A stretch of DNA of 64,000 bases, from assembly GCA_050302495.1 (NCBI GenBank), contig JBNLBP010000001.1, positions 127,269 to 191,268 on the forward strand. The letters are read 5' to 3'. Shown in pieces: positions 4,218 through 60,548 of this stretch. Position numbers and translations under genes: made by a program. The notes under the pieces were generated by a model. The model did no database searches. It had not been told where the DNA came from and saw only the letters and a program-made list of their open reading frames with translations. Source of the stretch: Candidatus Pacearchaeota archaeon. GTDB lineage: Archaea > Nanobdellota > Nanobdellia > Pacearchaeales > GW2011-AR1. Position 1 is the first letter of the stretch; each line of letters opens with the position of its first letter.

Positions 4218-4612
4218 AAGTAATCACATCAGGAAAAAGAAAGACAGCTATTGCAAGAGCTATACTTGAAGAAGGAACAGGAAAAGTTACAATAAATGGT
4301 CAAGATTACAAGAAATTACAAGAATTTGATAAGTTGAAATTGGAAGAGCCATTAAGAATAACTGAGAACATATTAGGAAAATTGAATTTCAATGTTGCAA
4401 TAAAAGTTAGAGGCGGTGGAGAAAAATCACAAGTTGAAGCATCAAGACTGGCTTTAGCAAGAGCAATTGTTGAATTTACAAAATCAGAAAAAGTAGAAGA
4501 TGCTTTCTGGGATTATGATAGAAATCTTCTTGTTGCTGATGTAAGAAGAAAAGAAGCTTACAAGCCTGGTGATTCCAAAGCTAGAAGTAAGAGACAGACA
4601 TCATATAGATAG
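4214..4612 (+). CDS. rps9: 30S ribosomal protein S9
   Basis: C-terminal ...KPGDSKARSKRQTSYR is the uS9 signature. 4-nt overlap with rpl13. Confidence 0.85.
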   Translation: MKVITSGKRKTAIARAILEEGTGKVTINGQDYKKLQEFDKLKLEEPLRITENILGKLNFNVAIKVRGGGEKSQVEASRLALARAIVEFTKSEKVEDAFWDYDRNLLVADVRRKEAYKPGDSKARSKRQTSYR

Positions 4613-4660
4613 TTTTGCTTTTAGAGGTAATTTTATAAAGATCTTTTTCATATTTATGAT

Positions 4661-4867
4661 ATGAAAGGGGTGAGAAAAGTTAATTGGATAGGTGCTTTGA
4701 TTGTTTCTATCTTGGTTGGTAGTCTGGGGGTTGACCGATTTATGATGGGCAAAGTTGGCCTTGGAATTCTTAAACTTATCACTCTCGGTGGATTTGGAGT
4801 TTGGTGGCTAATAGATGTTATCCTTATAGCTACTAAATATAACTTCAAAGGAATCGAGTGGGCATAA
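4661..4867 (+). CDS. TM2-domain membrane protein
   Basis: 68 aa with GVDRFMMGKVGLGILKLITLGGFGVWWLID, matching the TM2 domain (two TM helices, DRF motif). Confidence 0.65.
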   Translation: MKGVRKVNWIGALIVSILVGSLGVDRFMMGKVGLGILKLITLGGFGVWWLIDVILIATKYNFKGIEWA

Positions 4868-5855: not shown

Positions 5856-6410
5856 TTATTCAGAAATTTTTCTTCTTTTAGTTAAGGTATCTAGTTTATC
5901 TTGTACTTTATTAAATAATATTGAAGATACAATTGGTTTATGATCTGCTTCATGAATTTGACCATCAAATTTTATCTTTCCTATATAAGCAAAATTTCTA
6001 AGTATTTTCTTTAAACCATTTACGGAAAGTTGGTGTTTTTTTGATAGTGTGTTTAAGTTCATTCTTGGTTGTAAGAACTCTTCGAATATTTCTTCTACCT
6101 CTTCATAGTTTTGAGCTGGAACTAAAACTCCTGAATCATGATTTCTTTTATACCCAAATGGTGCTCTAGACATGTGTAATCCTTTAGAAGATTTCTTTAT
6201 CATCCCAATTTTTTGATTTTCCCCACGGAACTTAGAATATTTTCTTAAAGGTTCAAGATTCTTTTCAAGGATTTTTTCTTCAATATATACATCTAATTCT
6301 TCGGGAGTATTGGGGGAGAAAGTATGGCAAATACTACATAATGTTAGTCCAAACTTACTCTTGTTCTTATCCGAAACATACCCGCATTTTACGCATTTAC
6401 TTTCATTCAT
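5856..6410 (-). CDS. zinc-ribbon protein carrying a serine-recombinase-type recombinase (DNA-binding) domain, without a resolvase catalytic domain
   Basis: N-terminal CxxC...CxxC (CVKCG...CSICH). The remainder matches the recombinase-domain pattern of large serine recombinases (APFGYK...VLVPAQNYEEVEEIFEEF...LKKILRNFAYIGKIKFDGQIHEADHKPIVS..LFNKVQ). Its start overlaps the 3' end of the tyrosine recombinase gene by 8 nt. Confidence 0.55.
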   Translation of the reverse strand: MNESKCVKCGYVSDKNKSKFGLTLCSICHTFSPNTPEELDVYIEEKILEKNLEPLRKYSKFRGENQKIGMIKKSSKGLHMSRAPFGYKRNHDSGVLVPAQNYEEVEEIFEEFLQPRMNLNTLSKKHQLSVNGLKKILRNFAYIGKIKFDGQIHEADHKPIVSSILFNKVQDKLDTLTKRRKISE

Positions 6411-7242
6411 TTTGCATCAATCCATCTATAGGGGATTTTATTTTTTTTAATTGTTCCGTTGAAACGTGAGCGTAAATTTCTGTGGTCGCAAGGTTACTAT
6501 GGCCAAGAAGAGTTTGTATAAATCTTATGTCTGTTCCATTTTCTAATAAATGTGTTGCAAAAGAGTGTCTTAAGGTATGGCAGTGAACATCTTTGTTTAT
6601 TCCTGCTTTTTTTGCTGTATTTGAAACTATTTTTTGCATATTTCTAGGAGTAAGTTTTCCCTTTGGACCTGAGAAAATGTAAACTTGGTTGAATTCTTTT
6701 TGATTTTTAGCACGATTTTTTAGATCTTCATATAAGAATTCGGGAATATTAAACATACGATCTTTCTTTCCTTTAGCTTGTTTTACATAACCTATCTTAT
6801 TATCAAAATCTAGATCATCTATTTTAAGACTAACCAGTTCTGAAACCCGAAACCCACAAGCATACATAAGAGACATCATTAACCTTGATTTCTTATTTGA
6901 AGCGACATCAAACATCCTTTTGACTTCTTCTTTTGTTAAAACTGCAGGGATTCTTTTTTCTCGTTTTGGTCTTTTAATACCTTGAGTTATATCTTTTTTT
7001 AGAATATTTGAATAAGCATATTTAATTGCGGATAAGAAAACAATCGTTGAACTTGAACTTGAATCAGATAATCTCTCAACTAAGAAAAGTTTTAGATCGT
7101 CTTCACTCATATCATCTGGTATTTTATTTGTAAATATGAATAATTCATTGTTTGCTCTTAGATAGTTTCTTAAAGTATAATTGGAATTTTTAGAGATCTT
7201 CAGTTCTATTTCAAGTTTTTTTAGAAATTCTTCTGGAGTCAT
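6403..7242 (-). CDS. xerA: tyrosine recombinase, XerA/XerCD-like integrase family
   Basis: C-terminal catalytic signature HTLRHSFATHLLENGTDIRFIQTLLGHSNLATTEIYAHV. R (RVSEL) and K (GKKDR) are also present. Confidence 0.85.
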   Translation of the reverse strand: MTPEEFLKKLEIELKISKNSNYTLRNYLRANNELFIFTNKIPDDMSEDDLKLFLVERLSDSSSSSTIVFLSAIKYAYSNILKKDITQGIKRPKREKRIPAVLTKEEVKRMFDVASNKKSRLMMSLMYACGFRVSELVSLKIDDLDFDNKIGYVKQAKGKKDRMFNIPEFLYEDLKNRAKNQKEFNQVYIFSGPKGKLTPRNMQKIVSNTAKKAGINKDVHCHTLRHSFATHLLENGTDIRFIQTLLGHSNLATTEIYAHVSTEQLKKIKSPIDGLMQNE

Positions 7243-12539: not shown

Positions 12540-12790
12540 TAAACACCTGTTTAAACAGCGTTTTATCGACGGTGTAAGAACTTGGGTATTTAAGGGTGTT
12601 TGACAGGTTGTTGGAGGTGTTTGAACAGGTGTTGGATAATATTTTGTGTTTTGGGTGATTCTTAAACAGCTGTTTATAGGTGTTTGTAGCTGTTTAGAGA
12701 TGTTTAAACAGGGTGTTTGTTTGTTTTTTTCAAAATAAACGGGTGTTTAAGGGTGTTTATTATGTAAAATTTTATGTTAAAAATAGTGTA
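12540..12790. repeat. intergenic array of GGTGTTT / CAGGTGTT iterations interleaved with CTGTTTAAACAG and AAACAGCTGTTT palindromes
   Basis: At least six exact GGTGTTT copies. Palindromes at 12547-12558, 12662-12677 and 12701-12711. Confidence 0.7.
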
Positions 12791-12865
12791 AAAATTAGCA
12801 TAGAAAAAGGCTTTTTATCGATATAAGAAAGAAAAGTTTATAAACATGCTTTCTTTGTAATTACT

Positions 12866-13507
12866 ATGTTTGGATTATTTTCGAGAAAAAAAGAGATTGA
12901 TGAAGTTAAGGAAGATACAAAAAAAGGATTTGAATCTGTAAAAAAAGATATTACGGCTGTAAGCGGATGGATTAAACACCTAGATTCTGAGCGAGAAATG
13001 CAAAAAAAAGACATTTCTGAGGTTAAAGAAATTTTATCGTCGGTTCAAGAAGAGCTTGAAAGTCTCAAGAACGTGTTTTCTATGATGAATCAAACAGGTG
13101 TTTTGCCAAAAAACAAACAGGTGTTTAAAACACCTGGTAGGGTGTTTGAAGAACAAACAGGTGTTTATGCTGTTCAAACAGGTGTGCAAACGGCTGTCCA
13201 AACACCAAATTTAGAGCAATTTTCAATAACAGAGAGAGCAATTATATGGGTTATGCTAAATAGTGATATGAAGCTTAGTTATGATGATATAGCTGCTATG
13301 TTGGGAAAGGAGAGATCTACTATAAGAGGGCAGATAAATACAATAAAATCAAAGAGTGAGGGCTTAATTGAAGAGGTAATAGAGAAAAATGGTAAAAAAA
13401 GAGTGTTTATACCTGAGAAAATGAAGGAAATAATGCTCAAAAAGGCGAAAGTGAGAGTTAATAAACAAAAAAACGCGAAAAAAACTAAAAAAGTGAGTGA
13501 ATATTGA
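12866..13507 (+). CDS. coiled-coil / QTGV-repeat / C-terminal winged-HTH protein (paralog of 13702..14589)
   Basis: N-terminal K/E coiled coil. Middle region is made of AACAGGTGTTT nucleotide repeats (QTGV peptide repeats). C-terminal HTH-like LSYDDIAAMLGKERSTIRGQINTIK. Confidence 0.5.
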   Translation: MFGLFSRKKEIDEVKEDTKKGFESVKKDITAVSGWIKHLDSEREMQKKDISEVKEILSSVQEELESLKNVFSMMNQTGVLPKNKQVFKTPGRVFEEQTGVYAVQTGVQTAVQTPNLEQFSITERAIIWVMLNSDMKLSYDDIAAMLGKERSTIRGQINTIKSKSEGLIEEVIEKNGKKRVFIPEKMKEIMLKKAKVRVNKQKNAKKTKKVSEY

Positions 13508-13660
13508 AAGAAAATGAGGGTAAAAATGCTAAAAAATAAAGAAAAAGTGAGTGTTTTACAAGAGAATAGGGGCTCGAGTAAAAGCTTAGAAAAAGTGAGG
13601 ACTAATTTATCGACGGAAACAACGTAAAAGTGATAGATTTACAAGATAAAAGAAGTGATA
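13445..13660. repeat. AAAGTGAG iteron-like direct repeats (about six copies at 25-55 bp spacing)
   Basis: Copies near 13447, 13488, 13543, 13592, 13627 and 13653. They span the 3' end of the 12866 gene and the convergent intergenic spacer. Confidence 0.6.
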
Positions 13661-13701
13661 TGAATAGTCAAAGTAATTAATCGGTGTAACGAGAATCGTA
13701 A

Positions 13702-14589
13702 TTAAATATCTCTTAATTGAATTATTGTTTGTAGACTAGCAACTTTCTTTAAATCAGAAGAGACACTTAACTGGATAGACTTGTTATTTATCTTAGTTTT
13801 ATCGACGGGGATACCTTTCTTTATTAGTCTTCCAATATAATCCCTGATGGAGCTCTCTGTAAGCCCTAAAATGCTTGAAATAGCCTTATAATCAGCATAT
13901 CCTTCTTCTTCACATAATTGATATAATGTAGTGAATACTGTCATCTCTTGATCAGTGAGTCTTTTGAACTTTAGACGTATTTCTTTCTTCAAGTTATCAA
14001 GAGAGTTGAGAATTGTCATGGCATCCTTTATTGGGCTTGAAGGAGTCATTTTAGGTATGTTTTCTTGATTGTACGAACTATTATGTGTCTGTTGGTGTGT
14101 TTGTCTGTTTGTCTGTTTGTCTGTTGGAACCCCCCCATTTCCTGTGGAAATACCTAAATTTTGGGGTTCTAAGGGCTTAATATGTGTCGAATCTGTCGAA
14201 TTATGTGTCGAAATAGAGTCATTTATGTGTTGGATTGTCGAATTATGTGTCGAAGCCCTTTTAACAGGGATTTCAGGAGTGTTGGAATATGTGTTTGTCT
14301 GTTTGTCTGTTTGTCTGTTTGTCTGTTGGATAAGTATTTCAGGGTTATTTGGAGAAGAAAGAATACTTGAAAGGGAGTTTTTTTTGGATTGAAGTGTATT
14401 CTCTTTCAGTGATTTAACAATTTCTTTAATCTCATTTAAATCAGAAGAAGTATTATTTAAAGAATCTTTCAATGAGCATATCTCACCATACAAAAAGTCA
14501 ATATCTTCTTTAACTCTCAAAAAGGCCTCTTTTATTTCTTCCATTATTTCAAAAGAGGTATTAGATATAAAAAGATTAAGATAATCCAA
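13702..14589 (-). CDS. coiled-coil / tandem-repeat / C-terminal winged-HTH protein (paralog of 12866..13507)
   Basis: Same architecture as the 12866..13507 gene. C-terminal HTH-like YADYKAISSILGLTESSIRDYIGRLIKKG. Middle region encoded by (TTGTCTGT)n arrays and GAATTATGTGTCGAA repeats. Confidence 0.5.
   Translation of the reverse strand: MDYLNLFISNTSFEIMEEIKEAFLRVKEDIDFLYGEICSLKDSLNNTSSDLNEIKEIVKSLKENTLQSKKNSLSSILSSPNNPEILIQQTNRQTDKQTNTYSNTPEIPVKRASTHNSTIQHINDSISTHNSTDSTHIKPLEPQNLGISTGNGGVPTDKQTNRQTHQQTHNSSYNQENIPKMTPSSPIKDAMTILNSLDNLKKEIRLKFKRLTDQEMTVFTTLYQLCEEEGYADYKAISSILGLTESSIRDYIGRLIKKGIPVDKTKINNKSIQLSVSSDLKKVASLQTIIQLRDI
14085..14340. repeat. intragenic tandem arrays: (TTGTCTGT)4-5 at 14090-14135 and 14293-14335, and GAATTATGTGTCGAA x3 at 14181-14255
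   Basis: Read directly. On the coding (minus) strand these give KQTNRQT and STHNS peptide repeats. Confidence 0.75.
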
Positions 14590-14597
14590 GATAATGT

Positions 14598-14867
14598 TTA
14601 ATTTGCTAGCTTCCTATAAGAAGAATATGCTTTATCAGATAGTTTCCATCTTGATCGTTTCAAATAAGGTATACCTGAAGGATTTTTCTTTATTTCATTA
14701 ACAAGACCTTTCTTTTTTAGCCTAAGTAATAAAGTTTTGGTGAATTCTTCATCCCTCACAACTTCATGTGCAACATTAATTGTGAAAACTGCTTTAGGAG
14801 ATATAGAAAATAGATATGAAATGATTTGTTCACATATTCTCTCTTTTTTTTGTTCTGAAATACGCAT
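14598..14867 (-). CDS. small basic protein, possible winged-helix DNA-binding
   Basis: 89 aa, directly upstream of 13702..14589 on the same strand. K/R-rich C-terminus. Confidence 0.35.
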   Translation of the reverse strand: MRISEQKKERICEQIISYLFSISPKAVFTINVAHEVVRDEEFTKTLLLRLKKKGLVNEIKKNPSGIPYLKRSRWKLSDKAYSSYRKLAN

Positions 14868-14946
14868 AAGGAGGATAAGAAAATACTTTTTTTAAATATG
14901 ATGTATTATATAATAAATTAGAGTAGGAATAATTAGCAAATTTAAA

Positions 14947-15387
14947 TTATTTCTTTGGAGAAGAACCTTGTGCAGAATTCTTAGCTGGTTTCACCGAGGG
15001 TAAAGGCACATGAGAAGGTAAATTTATTTCTTCTTCCAATTGAAGAGCTTTAAGATTACATTTCTTTAAAATAACATTGAATAAAGGTAATCTGAATTCT
15101 TCAGGAACAGATTTTTTAGCCCATTCTTTTATAAATAATTCCGCTTCTTTAGCTGGCATTGATACTAAAACCATTCCTGAAAAGAATATCTTAGCAAACT
15201 TAGGTTCATATGAGATCTCATAACTAAAATCAACACCTAGAAGAGATTCTTTTGATTGAATAACATCAGACTTAACGTCTTTTACGTCTGCAATATCTAT
15301 ATTTGTATTAACCTTTAAGTTTTCAACAAGTGTTTTAGAATATTTCTCTGCACCAATTTTAGAAAAGTTAAAACCAACTAATTTCAT
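14947..15387 (-). CDS. hypothetical protein (146 aa)
   Basis: Track ORF. No motif. Confidence 0.4.
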   Translation of the reverse strand: MKLVGFNFSKIGAEKYSKTLVENLKVNTNIDIADVKDVKSDVIQSKESLLGVDFSYEISYEPKFAKIFFSGMVLVSMPAKEAELFIKEWAKKSVPEEFRLPLFNVILKKCNLKALQLEEEINLPSHVPLPSVKPAKNSAQGSSPKK

Positions 15388-15467
15388 AATACCAAGAGAA
15401 AGTTTTTGTTTTTAAATATTTTGGTAGTTGAAAAGGATTGTTAGTCTTTTTTATTAGAATAATCTAA

Positions 15468-15728
15468 TTATATTAAGTCTTCTTCAGAAACAATAACGAA
15501 GTCTCCTATAGCTACAATAGAGCTATAAGGTATTAACAGCTCGTTTGAAGATGTTTTCTCTAGGTTAAGATTTCTGGTATAGGGAGTTGTATCTTTTACA
15601 ACGATATTAATTAATTCCCCAGATCTTGTCTCAAAGAGAATATCCTTAACAAATCCTAATCTTTTTCCCTCTTTTGTTACAATCATTTTACCCACAAGAG
15701 CATTGAAAGGAGTCTTTTCTGTTTGCAT
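15468..15728 (-). CDS. PRC-barrel domain protein
   Basis: 86 aa. The GKMIVTKEGKRLGFVKDILFETRSGELINIVV pattern is typical of small archaeal PRC-barrel proteins. Confidence 0.6.
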   Translation of the reverse strand: MQTEKTPFNALVGKMIVTKEGKRLGFVKDILFETRSGELINIVVKDTTPYTRNLNLEKTSSNELLIPYSSIVAIGDFVIVSEEDLI

Positions 15729-15813
15729 GAGAAGGTGAGACCTAACAAATTTATAAAGTTTTCTGTGAGAATATATAGAGATTAGAGGAGATACTTAATA
15801 ATACTCTATATAA

Positions 15814-15985
15814 ATAATAATAATAATAATAATAAATTATTATATATAACACCCCCACCCCATTACTTCTTATGGAAATATTTAAAAAGAAATTGATTGA
15901 CTTTTTCTTTTTTATTTTATTTAAAAAAATTTATATTATATATTATATATATAATATAAATAATAATAATAATAATAATAATAAT
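15814..15985. repeat. (AAT)n microsatellites (about 7 and 8 units) within the origin AT-rich region
   Basis: aataataataataataat runs at 15814-15836 and 15957-15985. Confidence 0.8.
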
Positions 15986-16146
15986 TGTTCTATTTGGTGA
16001 TTATTTAGAAATTGTTCTCCATAGGAAATAAAGGTGTTTTTATTTCTTAGTGATTATAATCCTTTATATAATAAACTCCGTTTTCTCCGTTGGTTATGTT
16101 CCTTTGGAGGTATTTTCCACAGGAAATAAACGTGTGGGTGTGATAA
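15845..16146. promoter_or_regulatory. predicted chromosomal replication origin (oriC): AT-rich unwinding element flanked by ORB-like dyads, immediately upstream of orc1/cdc6
   Basis: ORB-like elements TCTCCATAGGAAATAAAGGTG (16015-16036) and TTTCCACAGGAAATAAACGTGTGGGTG (16124-16150). A third copy lies on the opposite strand at 15849-15880 (TTTCCATAAGAAG..GGGGTGGGGGTG) with a G-string. A >90% A+T stretch containing an (AAT)8 run sits between the inverted elements (15881-16010). An inverted core TTCCTTTGGA is at 16100. Confidence 0.6.
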
Positions 16147-16148
16147 AG

Positions 16149-17360
16149 ATGGCATTAGATATTGATGGTTTGTTTAACTCTTTTCATAAAGAGGGTATAT
16201 TCAAAGATAAAAGCTTACTACAAATAAACCATAAACCTGAAGAGATTCCTCATAGGGATGAACAGATAAAGCAAATTGTTTCTATTCTGGCTCCTGTACT
16301 TAGGGGTGAGAAACCTAGTAATCTTTTTGTTTATGGTAAAACTGGTACTGGTAAGACTCTTTCTGTTCAATTTGTTCAAGATGAATTAATAAGGAGATTC
16401 TCTAGAGAATCTGATTTTAAGCTTAGAATTGAATATTTAAATTGTAAACTTAAGAAGATTGCTGATACAGAATATAGAATCCTTGCGGAATTAATTAAGA
16501 AACTAGGTGGTGAGGTTCCTGAGACTGGCTTGCCTACTCAGTCTGTTTATGGTAAATTTGTAGATTTAGTAGATACTGAGAAACAATTGATTGTTTTAGT
16601 TTTAGATGAGATCGATCAAACTGTTAAGAAAATTTCTAGTGACTTTCTTTATAACCTTACTAGATTAAACTCCGAATTATCTAAAACTCAAATTTGTGTG
16701 GTGGGTATTAGTAACAATCTTACTTTTTTGGATGAATTAGACCCAAGAGTTAGAAGTTCACTGAGTGAAGAGGAGATAGTTTTTCCCCCATATAATGCTG
16801 TTCAGTTGCAAGAAATTTTGAATAAGCGTTCAAATGTTGCATTTAGGGAAGGTATTGTTGAAGAAGGTGTTATTGCTAAGTGTGCTGCTTTTGCTGCTAG
16901 AGAGCATGGTGATGCTAGAAGAGCATTAGATCTCTTAAGAGTTGCAGGGGAATTGGCTGAAAGAGCGGGTTCTGAAAAAGTTTTACTCGAACATATAGAT
17001 CAGGCCAATGATAAAATAGAAAAGGACAAGATTTTGGATATTGTTGAATCTGAACCTAGGCAATTTCAACTTGTATTATACTCCATTATAAATCTAATTG
17101 AGAAAGATAAAGATCATTCTATATTTACAGGAGATGTTTACAACTATTATCAGGATTTATGTTCTAAGAATCGATCAGAAGTTCTTACTCAAAGAAGAGT
17201 CTCAGATATAATACAAGAATTTGACATGTTAGGTATCATTAATGTAAGAGTTATTTCTAAGGGTAGAGGTGGGAGAATGAGGGAAATAAAGTTAGCTATT
17301 TCAAATAATATATTAAATAAGGTTAAAGAGATCATTGAACACTCTCTTAATTATAGATAA
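16149..17360 (+). CDS. orc1: Orc1/Cdc6 replication initiator
   Basis: AAA+ Walker A GKTGTGKT. Walker B VLVLDEID. C-terminal winged helix. N-terminal MALDIDGLFNSF...INHKPEEIPHRDEQ is typical of Cdc6. The ATG at 16149 is preferred over the track's alternative start at 16050, which would run through the ORB elements. Confidence 0.9.
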   Translation: MALDIDGLFNSFHKEGIFKDKSLLQINHKPEEIPHRDEQIKQIVSILAPVLRGEKPSNLFVYGKTGTGKTLSVQFVQDELIRRFSRESDFKLRIEYLNCKLKKIADTEYRILAELIKKLGGEVPETGLPTQSVYGKFVDLVDTEKQLIVLVLDEIDQTVKKISSDFLYNLTRLNSELSKTQICVVGISNNLTFLDELDPRVRSSLSEEEIVFPPYNAVQLQEILNKRSNVAFREGIVEEGVIAKCAAFAAREHGDARRALDLLRVAGELAERAGSEKVLLEHIDQANDKIEKDKILDIVESEPRQFQLVLYSIINLIEKDKDHSIFTGDVYNYYQDLCSKNRSEVLTQRRVSDIIQEFDMLGIINVRVISKGRGGRMREIKLAISNNILNKVKEIIEHSLNYR

Positions 17361-59592: not shown

Positions 59593-59633
59593 TTGAACAA
59601 CAAACTTATAAATAATTATTTCTTTTATCGTTG

Positions 59634-60428
59634 ATGTGTAAAGTAATCGGGGTGGTTTCATTAAAAGGAGGCGTTGGTAAAACCTCTTCTGTTGTTAATA
59701 TGGGTTATGCTCTTTCAAAATTAGGAAAGAAGGTTCTTCTTGTTGATGGCAATTTGAGTGCTCCCAATCTCGGTTTGCATCTTAATTTGGTTGATCCTGA
59801 GAATGGTTTGCATGAAGTTTTACAGAGAAAGTCTAACCCTTCTGATGCTATTATTAAACTGGATGATTTTGATGTTATTGTTTCAAAGCTTATGGGTGAT
59901 GAAGAATTGGAATATCTTTCATTAAAGAAAAGGCTGGGTCATATAAAGAATAATTATGATGTGGTTCTTATTGACTCCTCTCCTAAATTGGATGAAGAGA
60001 CCCTTGCTGTTATGCTCGCTTCAGATGAAATTTTGGTTGTTACAACTCCTGATTTGCCTACTCTTGGAACTACAATTAAAGCAATTCAACTTGCAAAAAA
60101 AAGAGGCACTCCAATAGGAGGATTGGTTTTAAATCGAGTTTATAACAAAGACTTTGAGATTTCGTTGAAAGATGTTGAAGAAACTTTGGGGATTCCAGTA
60201 TTGGCCGTGATTCCTCATGATATTGGTTTTTTGAAATCTCTTTCAAACTTTGAATCTTTTGTGAAGGACAAACCTAAATCTGAAGCAAGTGAAGAATATA
60301 TGAAACTTGCAGGATCTCTTGTTGGAGAGAAATATAAACCTCTTAAGATGAAATCTTTTTTTAGGTGGGTTAATCCACGTAAACAAGATGTAAATCGAGC
60401 TATTTATTATAGGAGTTTGTTTGATTGA
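59634..60428 (+). CDS. MinD/ParA-family P-loop ATPase
   Basis: Deviant Walker A KGGVGKTS. Walker B VVLIDSSP. ATG at 59634 (track start is TTG at 59631). Confidence 0.75.
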   Translation: MCKVIGVVSLKGGVGKTSSVVNMGYALSKLGKKVLLVDGNLSAPNLGLHLNLVDPENGLHEVLQRKSNPSDAIIKLDDFDVIVSKLMGDEELEYLSLKKRLGHIKNNYDVVLIDSSPKLDEETLAVMLASDEILVVTTPDLPTLGTTIKAIQLAKKRGTPIGGLVLNRVYNKDFEISLKDVEETLGIPVLAVIPHDIGFLKSLSNFESFVKDKPKSEASEEYMKLAGSLVGEKYKPLKMKSFFRWVNPRKQDVNRAIYYRSLFD

Positions 60429-60474
60429 TCCTCTCAAAAACCTTTTAAATTGCTGAATATCTGATTATTATATT

Positions 60475-60547
60475 AGCCCCGTAGTACAGTGGTCAAGTAT
60501 GCGGCCCTTTGGAGGCCGTGACCCCGGTTCGAATCCGGGCGGGGCTA
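60475..60547 (+). tRNA. tRNA-Gln (anticodon TTG)
   Basis: Hand-folded. Acceptor AGCCCCG/CGGGGCT. D-arm GTAC/GTAT. Anticodon stem CGGCC/GGCCG with loop CTTTGGA. T-arm CCCGG-TTCGAAT-CCGGG. Discriminator A. Confidence 0.85.
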
Positions 60548-60548
60548 T

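Follow-up and report, generated by a model that had tools for sequence, protein, structure and literature searches.

Conserved same-strand AAAGTGAG boxes between two convergent winged-helix genes near orc1/cdc6 in a Pacearchaeota genome, and their helical register across related species

The DNA analysed here, referred to below as the window, is a stretch of 64,000 nucleotides from a Candidatus Pacearchaeota archaeon (assembly GCA_050302495.1, contig JBNLBP010000001.1, positions 127,269 to 191,268 of the forward strand). It has a G+C content of ~32% and comes from a low-GC DPANN (Nanobdellota) archaeal chromosome. Our subject is an array of direct repeats, or boxes, built around the motif AAAGTGAG, which lies in and beside two genes for winged-helix proteins that we call HTH1 and HTH2 (HTH, helix-turn-helix). 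These boxes are conserved, strand-specific and helically phased, and they are under selection at the nucleotide level. The explanation we prefer, to which we assign a probability of roughly 55%, is that a sequence-specific protein docks on the same-strand array, in its double-stranded form, and that the array is part of an origin-proximal nucleoprotein complex. The two genes, the boxes and the element that closes the array are located in the window as follows.

12866-13507, + strand: HTH1 gene, an open reading frame (ORF) of 213 aa, with the initial boxes of the array in its last third
13351-13364, + strand: box 0, degenerate and in-gene, AAAGAGTGAGGGCT, codons K-S-K-S-E-G, 95 bp (9.1 turns) upstream of box 1
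13448-13461, + strand: box 1, full consensus, AAAGTGAGAGTTAA, 20.3 bits, codons K195-V196-R197-V198
13490-13503, + strand: box 2, AAAGTGAGTGAATA, 11.1 bits, codons K-V-S-E-Y just before the TGA stop, 42 bp (4.0 turns) from box 1
13511-13524, + strand: box 2b, a variant, AAAATGAGGGTAAA, 11.0 bits, 63 bp (6.1 turns) from box 1
13544-13557, + strand: box 3, AAAGTGAGTGTTTT, 15.7 bits, 96 bp (9.2 turns) from box 1
13592-13605, + strand: box 4, AAAGTGAGGACTAA, 10.0 bits, 13.85 turns from box 1 and out of helical phase
13627-13640, + strand: box 5, weak, AAAGTGATAGATTT, under the matrix threshold, 17.2 turns from box 1
13652-13665, + strand: box 6, the weakest, GAAGTGATATGAAT, under the threshold and out of phase
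13673-13701, unstranded: degenerate copy of an inverted repeat (tAGTTATTCGGTnnAnCGAATAACTa in relatives) directly after the HTH2 stop, closing the array
13702-14589, - strand: HTH2 gene, an ORF of 295 aa, the convergent, paralogue-like partner of HTH1

Exact copies of AAAGTGAG start on the + strand at 13448, 13490, 13544 and 13592 and are followed by two weaker ones, AAAGTGAT at 13627 and GAAGTGAT, i.e. (G)AAGTGAT, at 13652; start-to-start distances from 13448 through 13652 are 42, 54, 48, 35 and 25 bp. An initial annotation, made from the sequence alone, had described six copies running from the last codons of the 12866 gene through the 194-bp spacer, and every coordinate was confirmed. The boxes at 13448 and 13490 fall in the last codons of 12866-13507 (K-V-R-V and K-V-S-E-Y, respectively), and the copies from 13544 onward lie inside the spacer (13508-13701). 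Two copies can be added to that list, the variant AAAATGAG at 13511 and the degenerate in-gene box AAAGAGTGAGGG at 13351-13362. In addition, the stretch of box 5 and 13534-13569 constitute a 36-nt repeat with 78% identity. The two strands of the window together contain only seven exact copies of AAAGTGAG (mean in shuffled sequence, 3.35). Four of the seven are packed into 152 bp, for which our own rough arithmetic gives a probability of ~5e-7. With a 17-nt weight matrix, seven matches of at least 10 bits were found in the window, all on the + strand and five of them at 13448-13592.

The conservation of the boxes was assessed in related loci from metagenome-assembled genomes (MAGs) of Woesearchaeota, Pacearchaeota and Nanoarchaeota, with coverage of 64 kb for the present genome and 3-kb flanks for the others. 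Motif densities are based on 78 related loci, whose far flanks amount to ~370 kb. The box has the consensus AAAAA-N4-AAAGTGAGAGTTAA (matrix consensus CAAAAGTGAGAGTTAAT). The density of AAAGTGAG is 5.2 per kb over the 250 bp that follow the HTH1 stop, 2.5 per kb within the gene and 0.005-0.04 per kb in the far flanks, an enrichment of ~500-fold in the HTH1 3' end and spacer across relatives. Strand specificity is complete, with 120 forward and no reverse copies in the gene and 100 forward and none reverse in the first 250 bp downstream. At least one exact AAAGTGAG is present within 250 bp after the stop in 60 of 77 loci, and most loci lacking an exact downstream copy have variants such as AAAATGAGAGTTAA or AAAGAGAGAGTT, the AAAATGAGAGTTAA type, to which box 2b belongs, being common in relatives. 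The 300 bp upstream of HTH1 contain no boxes at all (0 in 22.8 kb of relatives' DNA). The motif did not occur at a similar density throughout A-rich intergenic DNA, in either the window or the ~370 kb of flanks, and the check for copies elsewhere in the genome that the initial annotation had proposed revealed a motif that is concentrated at this locus within the 64 kb and rare in the flanks of relatives.

Searches farther afield yielded little. Viral contigs scanned for AAAGTGAGAGTTAA gave single chance hits and zero arrays. In metagenome contigs a two-box pattern proved too loose, as 117 of the 120 loci examined were unrelated, higher-GC DNA; the other three were HTH1 loci, two of them distant homologues. 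Literature searches on the motif and on DPANN origins, in a library that is incomplete, yielded no earlier account of the motif or of the gene cluster.

Within the HTH1 gene the boxes coincide with constrained codons. The position of box 1 (K-V-R-V, frame 0) is boxed in 76/78 loci, and that of box 0 (K-S-E-G, frame 1, 95 bp upstream) has an exact AAAGTGAG in 46/78. Val196 is encoded by GTG in 97% of genes, whereas GTG accounts for 24% of Val codons in the same genes, and Lys195 is AAA in 100%. Beyond the stop codon the boxes are not tied to a reading frame: downstream copies in the 78 loci fall into the three frames in a ratio of 45:32:28 (n=105), and the two closest relatives, with 81% and 77% protein identity, still have the boxes although their post-stop frame is interrupted. 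The closest relative (L081) has a counterpart of box 3 in the same position, and another locus (L082) has a box at a position similar to that of box 4. Phylogenetic footprinting of ten related spacer pairs showed the boxes to be 94% identical (329/351) versus 78% (1654/2133) for the remaining spacer, an odds ratio of 4.3 (p = 1e-14). All-against-all footprinting of the spacers was uninformative, as A-rich spacers align at ~65% by chance.

A different arrangement was noted in a distant relative, locus L265, whose HTH1 homologue is 43% identical. The peptide there is KIKV, and the full box is shifted to the last codons, beside the stop. This locus has a second cluster of three boxes (6818, 6862 and 6895; span 6818-6895, + strand) situated 2 kb from its HTH1 gene (4218-4835, - strand), i.e. 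on the other strand from HTH1, and downstream of an HNH-like ORF (6202-6690). The second cluster shows that box arrays can also occur away from the HTH1 3' end.

The spacing of the boxes was analysed using sites of at least 9 bits, called with a matrix trained on the same spacers, which gave one to six boxes per locus, mostly three to five. Distances between neighbours cluster at 42-44, 51-53, 63-64, 73-75, 83-84, 92-95, 103, 114 and 125 bp, corresponding to 4 to 12 turns of ~10.4 bp (Rayleigh R 0.49-0.59 at 10.2-10.5 bp). A restricted test on 165 distances in which the second box lies downstream of the stop gave an R of 0.49 at 10.5 bp (0.41-0.59 in a bootstrap over loci), with the best period in the range of 5-30 bp at 10.2-10.4, whereas the maximum R of 5000 random sets was 0.23. 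After removal of duplicate spacing vectors the p-value for phasing was ~2e-16, a figure inflated by shared ancestry. No 3-bp periodicity was present (period-3 R 0.10-0.12). A-tracts or A-rich positions, in phase with the boxes, surround the box at -20, -9, +1, +12, +22 and +33. Since the distance peaks fit neither a 10-bp integer nor an 11-bp unit, this pattern is unlikely to stem from slippage of a repeat unit during replication. The boxes are separated by whole helical turns, and therefore all sites would be on one side of the helix. The initial annotation had called for a helical phasing analysis, and multiples of ~10.4 bp are indeed clear, but only across species: the window spacing of 42/54/48/35/25 is only partly regular, and the window array by itself is partly in phase, with 13353, 13448, 13490, 13511, 13544 and 13627 within ~0.2 turn of a shared phase. 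The distance from the last box to the terminal inverted repeat gave no clear 10.5-bp phase signal.

HTH1 has 2645 database homologues, and the named ones among the best matches listed are from Pacearchaeota, Nanoarchaeota and Nanoarchaeia MAGs. Matches to Pfam, NCBIfam and PDB sequence profiles were all sub-threshold. An AlphaFold2 model of HTH1 predicts a long helix or coiled coil at the N-terminus (residues 2-77), a disordered linker (78-113) containing QTGV repeats, a MarR-like winged helix (121-191) with a predicted local distance difference test score (pLDDT) of 80-90, and then a disordered Lys-rich tail. Foldseek searches with this model returned generic MarR-family structures (such as MepR, SlyA and AbfR2; E ~2e-4). 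The C-terminus, ...LKKxKVRVxxxKNxKKxxK(V/I)SEY followed by the stop, is conserved family-wide, and the recognition helix (STIRGQIN) is invariant. HTH2 has the same architecture, namely a coiled coil, a QT-rich linker and a C-terminal winged helix/HTH; its best Pfam match, HTH_36 (E 4.8e-5), scores 23.5 bits against a cut-off of 25, and the matches to HTH_24 and TrmB are weaker and also sub-threshold. A Pfam HTH_ParB match near the array is likewise below threshold (E 0.021).

The array and its two genes belong to a gene cluster that we compared in 80 loci from 80 species-level genomes. Gene order is invariant in 80/80: HTH1 on the + strand; HTH2 and the genes for an 89-aa, a 146-aa and a PRC-barrel protein on the opposite strand; and orc1/cdc6 on the + strand. 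HTH1 and HTH2 are convergent in all 80, while the DNA on the upstream side of HTH1 is not conserved. In the window the Orc1/Cdc6 ORF, with Cdc6 domains by Pfam, is at 16050-17360. The three small genes (14598-15728, - strand) are always between HTH2 and the gap that precedes orc1/cdc6. The 89-aa protein (14598-14867) and the 146-aa protein have no family match; the third, of 86 aa, matches Pfam PRC (E 1.2e-9) and shows 70-91% identity between species. A connection with cell division in archaea has been described for PRC-barrel proteins.

Three origin recognition boxes (ORBs) accompany these genes.

14126-14148, - strand: ORB with a G-string inside HTH2, TATTTCCACAGGAAATGGGGGGG, codons I-S-T-G-N-G-G
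16014-16033 and 16112-16131, + strand: two ORBs in direct orientation (cores 16018 and 16116, 98 bp apart), TTTCCAnnGGAAAT, upstream of orc1/cdc6

The copies in the window match the archaeal ORB consensus CTTCCAGTGGAAACGAAAGGGGT (PMC4153887, Table 2), and nearly all of the 80 loci have ORBs in the corresponding positions. AT-rich DNA with (AAT)n runs (15800-15990) fills the gap from the PRC-barrel gene to cdc6, and the ORB pair together with this AT-rich region is probably the oriC of this genome. In the ORB within HTH2 the flanking I-S-x-G-N codons are fixed while x varies (T/I/S/N/K), a pattern that points to DNA-level selection within the gene. The array is 0.5 kb from this outer ORB and 2.4 kb from the cdc6-proximal pair, and 2.3 kb and three genes separate it from the AT-rich unwinding region. 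Since Orc1/Cdc6 has its own recognisable ORB sites, the AAAGTGAG boxes are something else; CAAAAGTGAGAGTTAAT has no dyad, whereas that of the ORB is TTCCAnnGGAAA.

Several further features of this region were noted. The GTG start at 16050 is probably too far upstream for Orc1/Cdc6, because the ORB at 16116 is inside the extension, where it reads F-S-T-G-N; the start is likely the ATG at 16149 (MALDIDGLF...). GC skew is positive in every 2-kb bin over ~16-54 kb (16001-54000), and the cumulative skew climbs steadily. The longer ORFs at ~16-54 kb are mostly on the + strand, while the cluster genes at 13.7-15.7 kb are on the - strand, and an origin at ~15.8-16.0 kb fits because gene orientation diverges there.

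Based on these observations, we propose the following arrangement. The array, of 5-8 same-strand boxes, begins in the last third of HTH1, with two boxes in the K-S-E-G and K-V-R-V codons, and crosses the convergent spacer to the conserved inverted repeat at the HTH2 stop. An oligomer could place one winged-helix domain on each box, with the DNA bent or wrapped. The likeliest ligand would be a protein encoded at the locus, HTH1 (a 75-residue coiled coil suited to oligomerisation, a flexible linker, a winged helix and a Lys-rich tail), with HTH2 as the other candidate; we favour these two because the sites are adjacent to their genes, because both combine a coiled coil with a winged helix, and because the recognition helix and the box core are equally invariant. 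The role of the complex may be in chromosome organisation or segregation, as at a centromere, or in the control of origin activity, and a likely side effect would be to block convergent transcription of HTH1 and HTH2. That the complex is lineage-specific and origin-proximal is suggested by the invariant cluster, the ORB in HTH2 at 0.5 kb and the ORB pair at 2.4 kb. We infer the binding of a protein at the boxes; the choice of HTH1 or HTH2 as ligand goes one step beyond this, and the role is the least secure part. The binder could not be identified through co-variation of the recognition helix with the box, since both are essentially invariant.

A number of points weigh against this explanation. 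The boxes are at the 3' end of a gene, an unusual position for an operator. They are on the sense strand of HTH1, probably in its 3' untranslated region (UTR) given the few T-runs on the + strand, which would fit a role at the RNA level. The array in the window is only partly phased, with 13592 and 13652 off-phase, and the loci share ancestry, so that the p-values overstate their independence. No partition ATPase is linked to the array, and the AT-rich region is 2.3 kb away, which leaves the centromere and origin-control roles without direct support. Finally, the organisms are uncultivated, and binding is deduced from sequence.

Of the other explanations, the least improbable is that the same array serves purely local gene regulation and takes no part in replication or segregation; the bound protein would then be a roadblock or terminator separating the HTH genes, or the boxes would form an autoregulatory operator. 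Archaeal regulators (Ss-LrpB and the Lrp family) are known to wrap DNA at phased operator arrays, in 80/80 loci the array is situated precisely between the two convergent genes, which are regulator-like, and the + strand of the spacer offers almost no T-runs to terminate HTH1. We nevertheless consider this explanation unlikely, based on the absence of boxes from the 300 bp upstream of HTH1 (22.8 kb), the usual site of autoregulation, and on the second cluster in L265, which is 2 kb away behind an unrelated gene. In addition, the embedded ORB, two further motif classes (described below) and the invariant tie to cdc6 exceed the needs of a simple terminator. The spacer does not resemble an intrinsic terminator, with its + strand (~50% A) poor in T-runs and without a stable fold (z -0.3). 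The A-runs are T-runs for the convergent HTH2 transcript and may serve HTH2, but this leaves the G-containing box unexplained. The absolute strand specificity relative to the gene (220 forward, 0 reverse) would also suit an RNA element, in which boxes in the HTH1 mRNA, from the coding end into the probable 3' UTR, bind an RNA-binding protein or small RNA and affect stability or translation; their A/G-rich, C-poor composition is like that of unstructured protein-binding RNA. We regard this as distinctly unlikely. Phasing at ~10.4 bp would be expected for contact of an oligomeric protein with one face of the duplex, but would have no rationale in single-stranded RNA. Moreover, folding of the two strands was not better than that of shuffled sequence (z -0.32 and -0.34), Rfam gave no match at the gathering score in the window and none at E up to 1 for 13250-13800, and the second cluster of L265 is on the opposite strand, behind another gene. 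Slightly less likely still is that the boxes form part of the origin proper, as iteron- or ORB-like sites bound by Orc1/Cdc6 or by a different initiator. The array is near orc1/cdc6 in every locus, with an ORB 0.5 kb away in HTH2, and direct phased repeats are typical of iterons. However, the box is unlike the ORB, whose dyad TTCCAnnGGAAA and G-string are conserved elsewhere at these loci; the (AAT)n region and paired ORBs upstream of cdc6 are 2.3 kb from the array; and no Rep-type initiator gene is present.

The boxes might instead be functionless debris, that is, decaying tandem duplications of the Lys-rich coding tail, or the remains of a read-through or truncated C-terminal extension. The four exact copies of the array in the window share the HTH1 frame, their spacings of 42, 54 and 48 bp all being divisible by 3; no further stop interrupts this frame for 39 codons beyond the TGA (13508-13630; KKMRVKMLKNKEKVSVLQENRGSSKSLEKVRTNLSTETT); and the segment 13509-13536 matches 13416-13443, located 93 bp (31 codons) upstream, at 86% identity. 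The first 31 post-stop codons resemble the last 31 of the gene, as in a 93-bp tandem duplication with 3- and 6-nt indels, and the homologue P0021 reads through into a KVRV-like extension. The duplication is not conserved in the closest relatives; local duplication probably built part of the array in the window, but it does not explain the maintenance of the array. The conserved stop and ...K(V/I)SEY C-terminus indicate that the gene is not truncated, the downstream boxes of the 78 loci occupy all three frames without 3-bp periodicity, close relatives have post-stop stops yet keep boxes that stand above the spacer background, and a 10.4-bp register would not persist in decaying DNA. As a sole explanation debris is largely refuted by the family-wide stop, the frames, the footprinting and the phasing, and we consider it highly improbable. 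The possibility that an A-rich 8-mer has simply clustered by chance in intergenic DNA that is itself A-rich can be dismissed almost entirely. In its favour are the A content of the spacer and the lack of window-wide enrichment of a 12-mer with two mismatches, but it is refuted by the packing of four of the seven exact copies into 152 bp and by the ~500-fold enrichment at the homologous place in 78 other species. A recoded TGA is unsupported, as long table-11 ORFs, including that of Cdc6, are intact.

The initial annotation had compared the repeats to centromere-like or iteron sites and considered them unusual for a terminator region. Its core, a binding-site array for a DNA-binding protein that is not a terminator, held up, in that the boxes are conserved in ~80 species, confined to one strand, footprint-like, under synonymous constraint and spaced by multiples of ~10.4 bp; for the labels "iteron", in the classical sense, and "centromere" a defining feature is missing in each case. 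Among known centromeres, sopC of the F plasmid has 12 repeats of 43 bp and parC of R1 has 11-bp repeats, bound by SopB and ParR, respectively. Like these, the present array has short direct repeats on one strand at integral turns (42-43 bp is the commonest short spacing here), is beside the gene of a small DNA-binding protein, and is presumed to nucleate a higher-order complex. It is also origin-proximal on the chromosome (HTH2 ORB at 0.5 kb; cdc6-proximal ORB pair and AT-rich region at 2.4 kb), with synteny in 80/80 loci. Unlike these, it has no linked ParA- or ParM-type nucleoside triphosphatase (NTPase); its candidate binders are coiled-coil winged-helix proteins rather than ParB or ribbon-helix-helix proteins; its spacings range over 42-125 bp instead of following a fixed unit; and it is chromosomal, archaeal, beside oriC and partly in a coding region. 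A partition NTPase domain (ParA/SegA, ParM or TubZ) was absent from the ten genes at 9.6-17.4 kb and from the conserved cluster. The window has a single ParA/MinD-family ATPase gene (59631-60428, + strand), with a deviant Walker A motif (KGGVGKT) and matches to Pfam AAA_31, CbiA and ParA, which is 46 kb from the array and adjoins a tRNA-Gln gene (60474-60548).

The iterons of theta plasmids are bound by winged-helix Rep initiators (RepA, RepE and pi) and abut an AT-rich unwinding element. The boxes share with them the direct orientation, the helical phasing, a presumed winged-helix recognition, and a location near an origin and near the gene of the presumed binder. In contrast, the initiator here is Orc1/Cdc6, which has different ORBs of its own, and no Rep-family gene is present; the AT-rich region is 2.3 kb off, with three genes between, rather than beside the repeats. 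Conserved repeats near orc1/cdc6 also recall the ORBs themselves, one of which is coding-embedded as well (in HTH2), but the AAAGTGAG box is unrelated in sequence and lacks a dyad or G-string, and the true ORBs are separate (14126-14148, 16018 and 16116).

A single DNA site within the gene of its binding protein is known from Bacillus subtilis, where a parS site, a 16-bp palindrome, is inside spo0J (parB) and is bound by ParB with CTP-dependent spreading. Both cases concern an origin-near site, chromosome-organising in B. subtilis and putatively so here, embedded in the gene of the binder or presumed binder, with codons that are constrained because the DNA site is within coding sequence; the boxes differ in being asymmetric and multi-copy, and in the absence of ParB. 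Among archaeal operators, Ss-LrpB binds three boxes ~4 turns apart, and Lrp boxes are palindromic and located in promoters. Whole-turn spacing, an arrangement on one helix face and a position near the regulator's own gene are common to both, and cooperative binding and bending would be expected for both, whereas the boxes here are asymmetric, in one orientation and at or downstream of the 3' end of a gene, with none in the promoter region. At Sulfolobales origins, ucm is a single 11-bp site in the DNA unwinding element (DUE), and its binding protein UBP is a small, saddle-shaped nucleoid protein with >300 genomic sites; the same study asks whether other archaeal lineages have analogous origin-associated factors (PMC12141716). 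Like ucm, the box is a lineage-specific, non-ORB element tied to an orc1/cdc6 origin region; it differs in forming a multi-copy phased array, 2.4 kb from the DUE, that is apparently unique to its locus within 64 kb.

The AAAGTGAG array is one component of a region of ~1.6 kb that is dense in cis elements. Besides the boxes, motif sites at the locus comprise AAACAnnTGTTT and TTTATCGWCGATAAA, and the spacer contains the following element.

13606-13616, + strand: TTTATCGACGG, second motif class, half of the palindrome TTTATCG-W-CGATAAA

This is the single TTTATCGACGG copy that the initial annotation had reported for the spacer. The related pattern TTATCGWCGR has only four copies in the window (12563, 13034, 13607 and 13799, all on the + strand; 0.12 expected), all within the 1.3-kb locus. 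In relatives, HTH1, the DNA upstream of it, the spacer and HTH2 are all enriched in this pattern, and at the copy inside HTH1 Ser58 is TCG in 93% of genes. Palindromes of the AAACAnnTGTTT type occur in relatives at 4.4 per kb in the 350 bp upstream of HTH1 and at 1.9 per kb in the QTGV-coding part, versus 0.16 per kb in the far flanks, and five of the six copies in the window are at 12541-13166. Synonymous sites of the QTGV motif are fixed accordingly in the genes, with Gln CAA in 100%, Thr ACA in ~99% and Val100 GTT in 97%. The AAACAnnTGTTT palindromes are probably operator sites for another dimeric HTH protein. The inverted repeat next to the HTH2 stop, AGTTATTCGGT..ACGAATAACT, is present in 66/79 spacers, with the last box often 14-20 nt before it. 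Because its sequence, and not just its pairing, is conserved, this element may serve to bind a protein and not simply as a terminator hairpin.

Taken together, the HTH1-HTH2 locus of ~1.6 kb might be the chromosomal centromere or origin-control centre of DPANN archaea of the Pacearchaeales/Woesearchaeales type, a suggestion that we regard as tentative and rather doubtful. It would contain at least four motif classes in and around the genes of their binders: the phased AAAGTGAGAGTTAA boxes, AAACAnnTGTTT, TTTATCG-W-CGATAAA and the ORB. Coiled-coil winged-helix proteins on the boxes could couple the origin to the segregation, membrane or division machinery, given the PRC-barrel gene in the cluster, or could gate Orc1/Cdc6. 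If this were true, the locus would represent a cis/trans system with no relationship to ParABS or SegAB.

To our knowledge, nothing is known experimentally about the organisation, replication and segregation of the very small chromosomes of DPANN archaea, and at this position they have no recognisable ParABS or SegAB loci. The boxes provide a concrete conserved cis element, 14-22 bp in length and of defined helical geometry, in an invariant cluster beside orc1/cdc6, and with two or three candidate binders encoded on site it is testable in vitro without cultivation. The KVRV, QTGV and ISxGN peptides, in which synonymous positions are fixed by overlapping DNA motifs, are cases where selection on a DNA site shapes protein sequence, which is relevant to the use of these genes as phylogenetic markers and to codon-based inference of selection. 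If the array is only a local terminator or roadblock, its interest is modest.

Some motifs of the locus recur as coding repeats. The segments 12541-12760 and 13086-13185 have dense AAACAnnTGTTT palindromes and (R)GGTGTTT repeats, and the 12-mer CAAACAGGTGTT is shared between the DNA upstream of HTH1 and the in-gene Q-T-G-V codons. Within HTH2, 8-bp tandem repeats, (TGTTTGTC)n on the + strand at 14098-14125 and 14292-14327, encode the linker sequence QTNRQTDKQT and contain the half-site TGTTTG/CAAACA, as do the palindromes upstream of HTH1.

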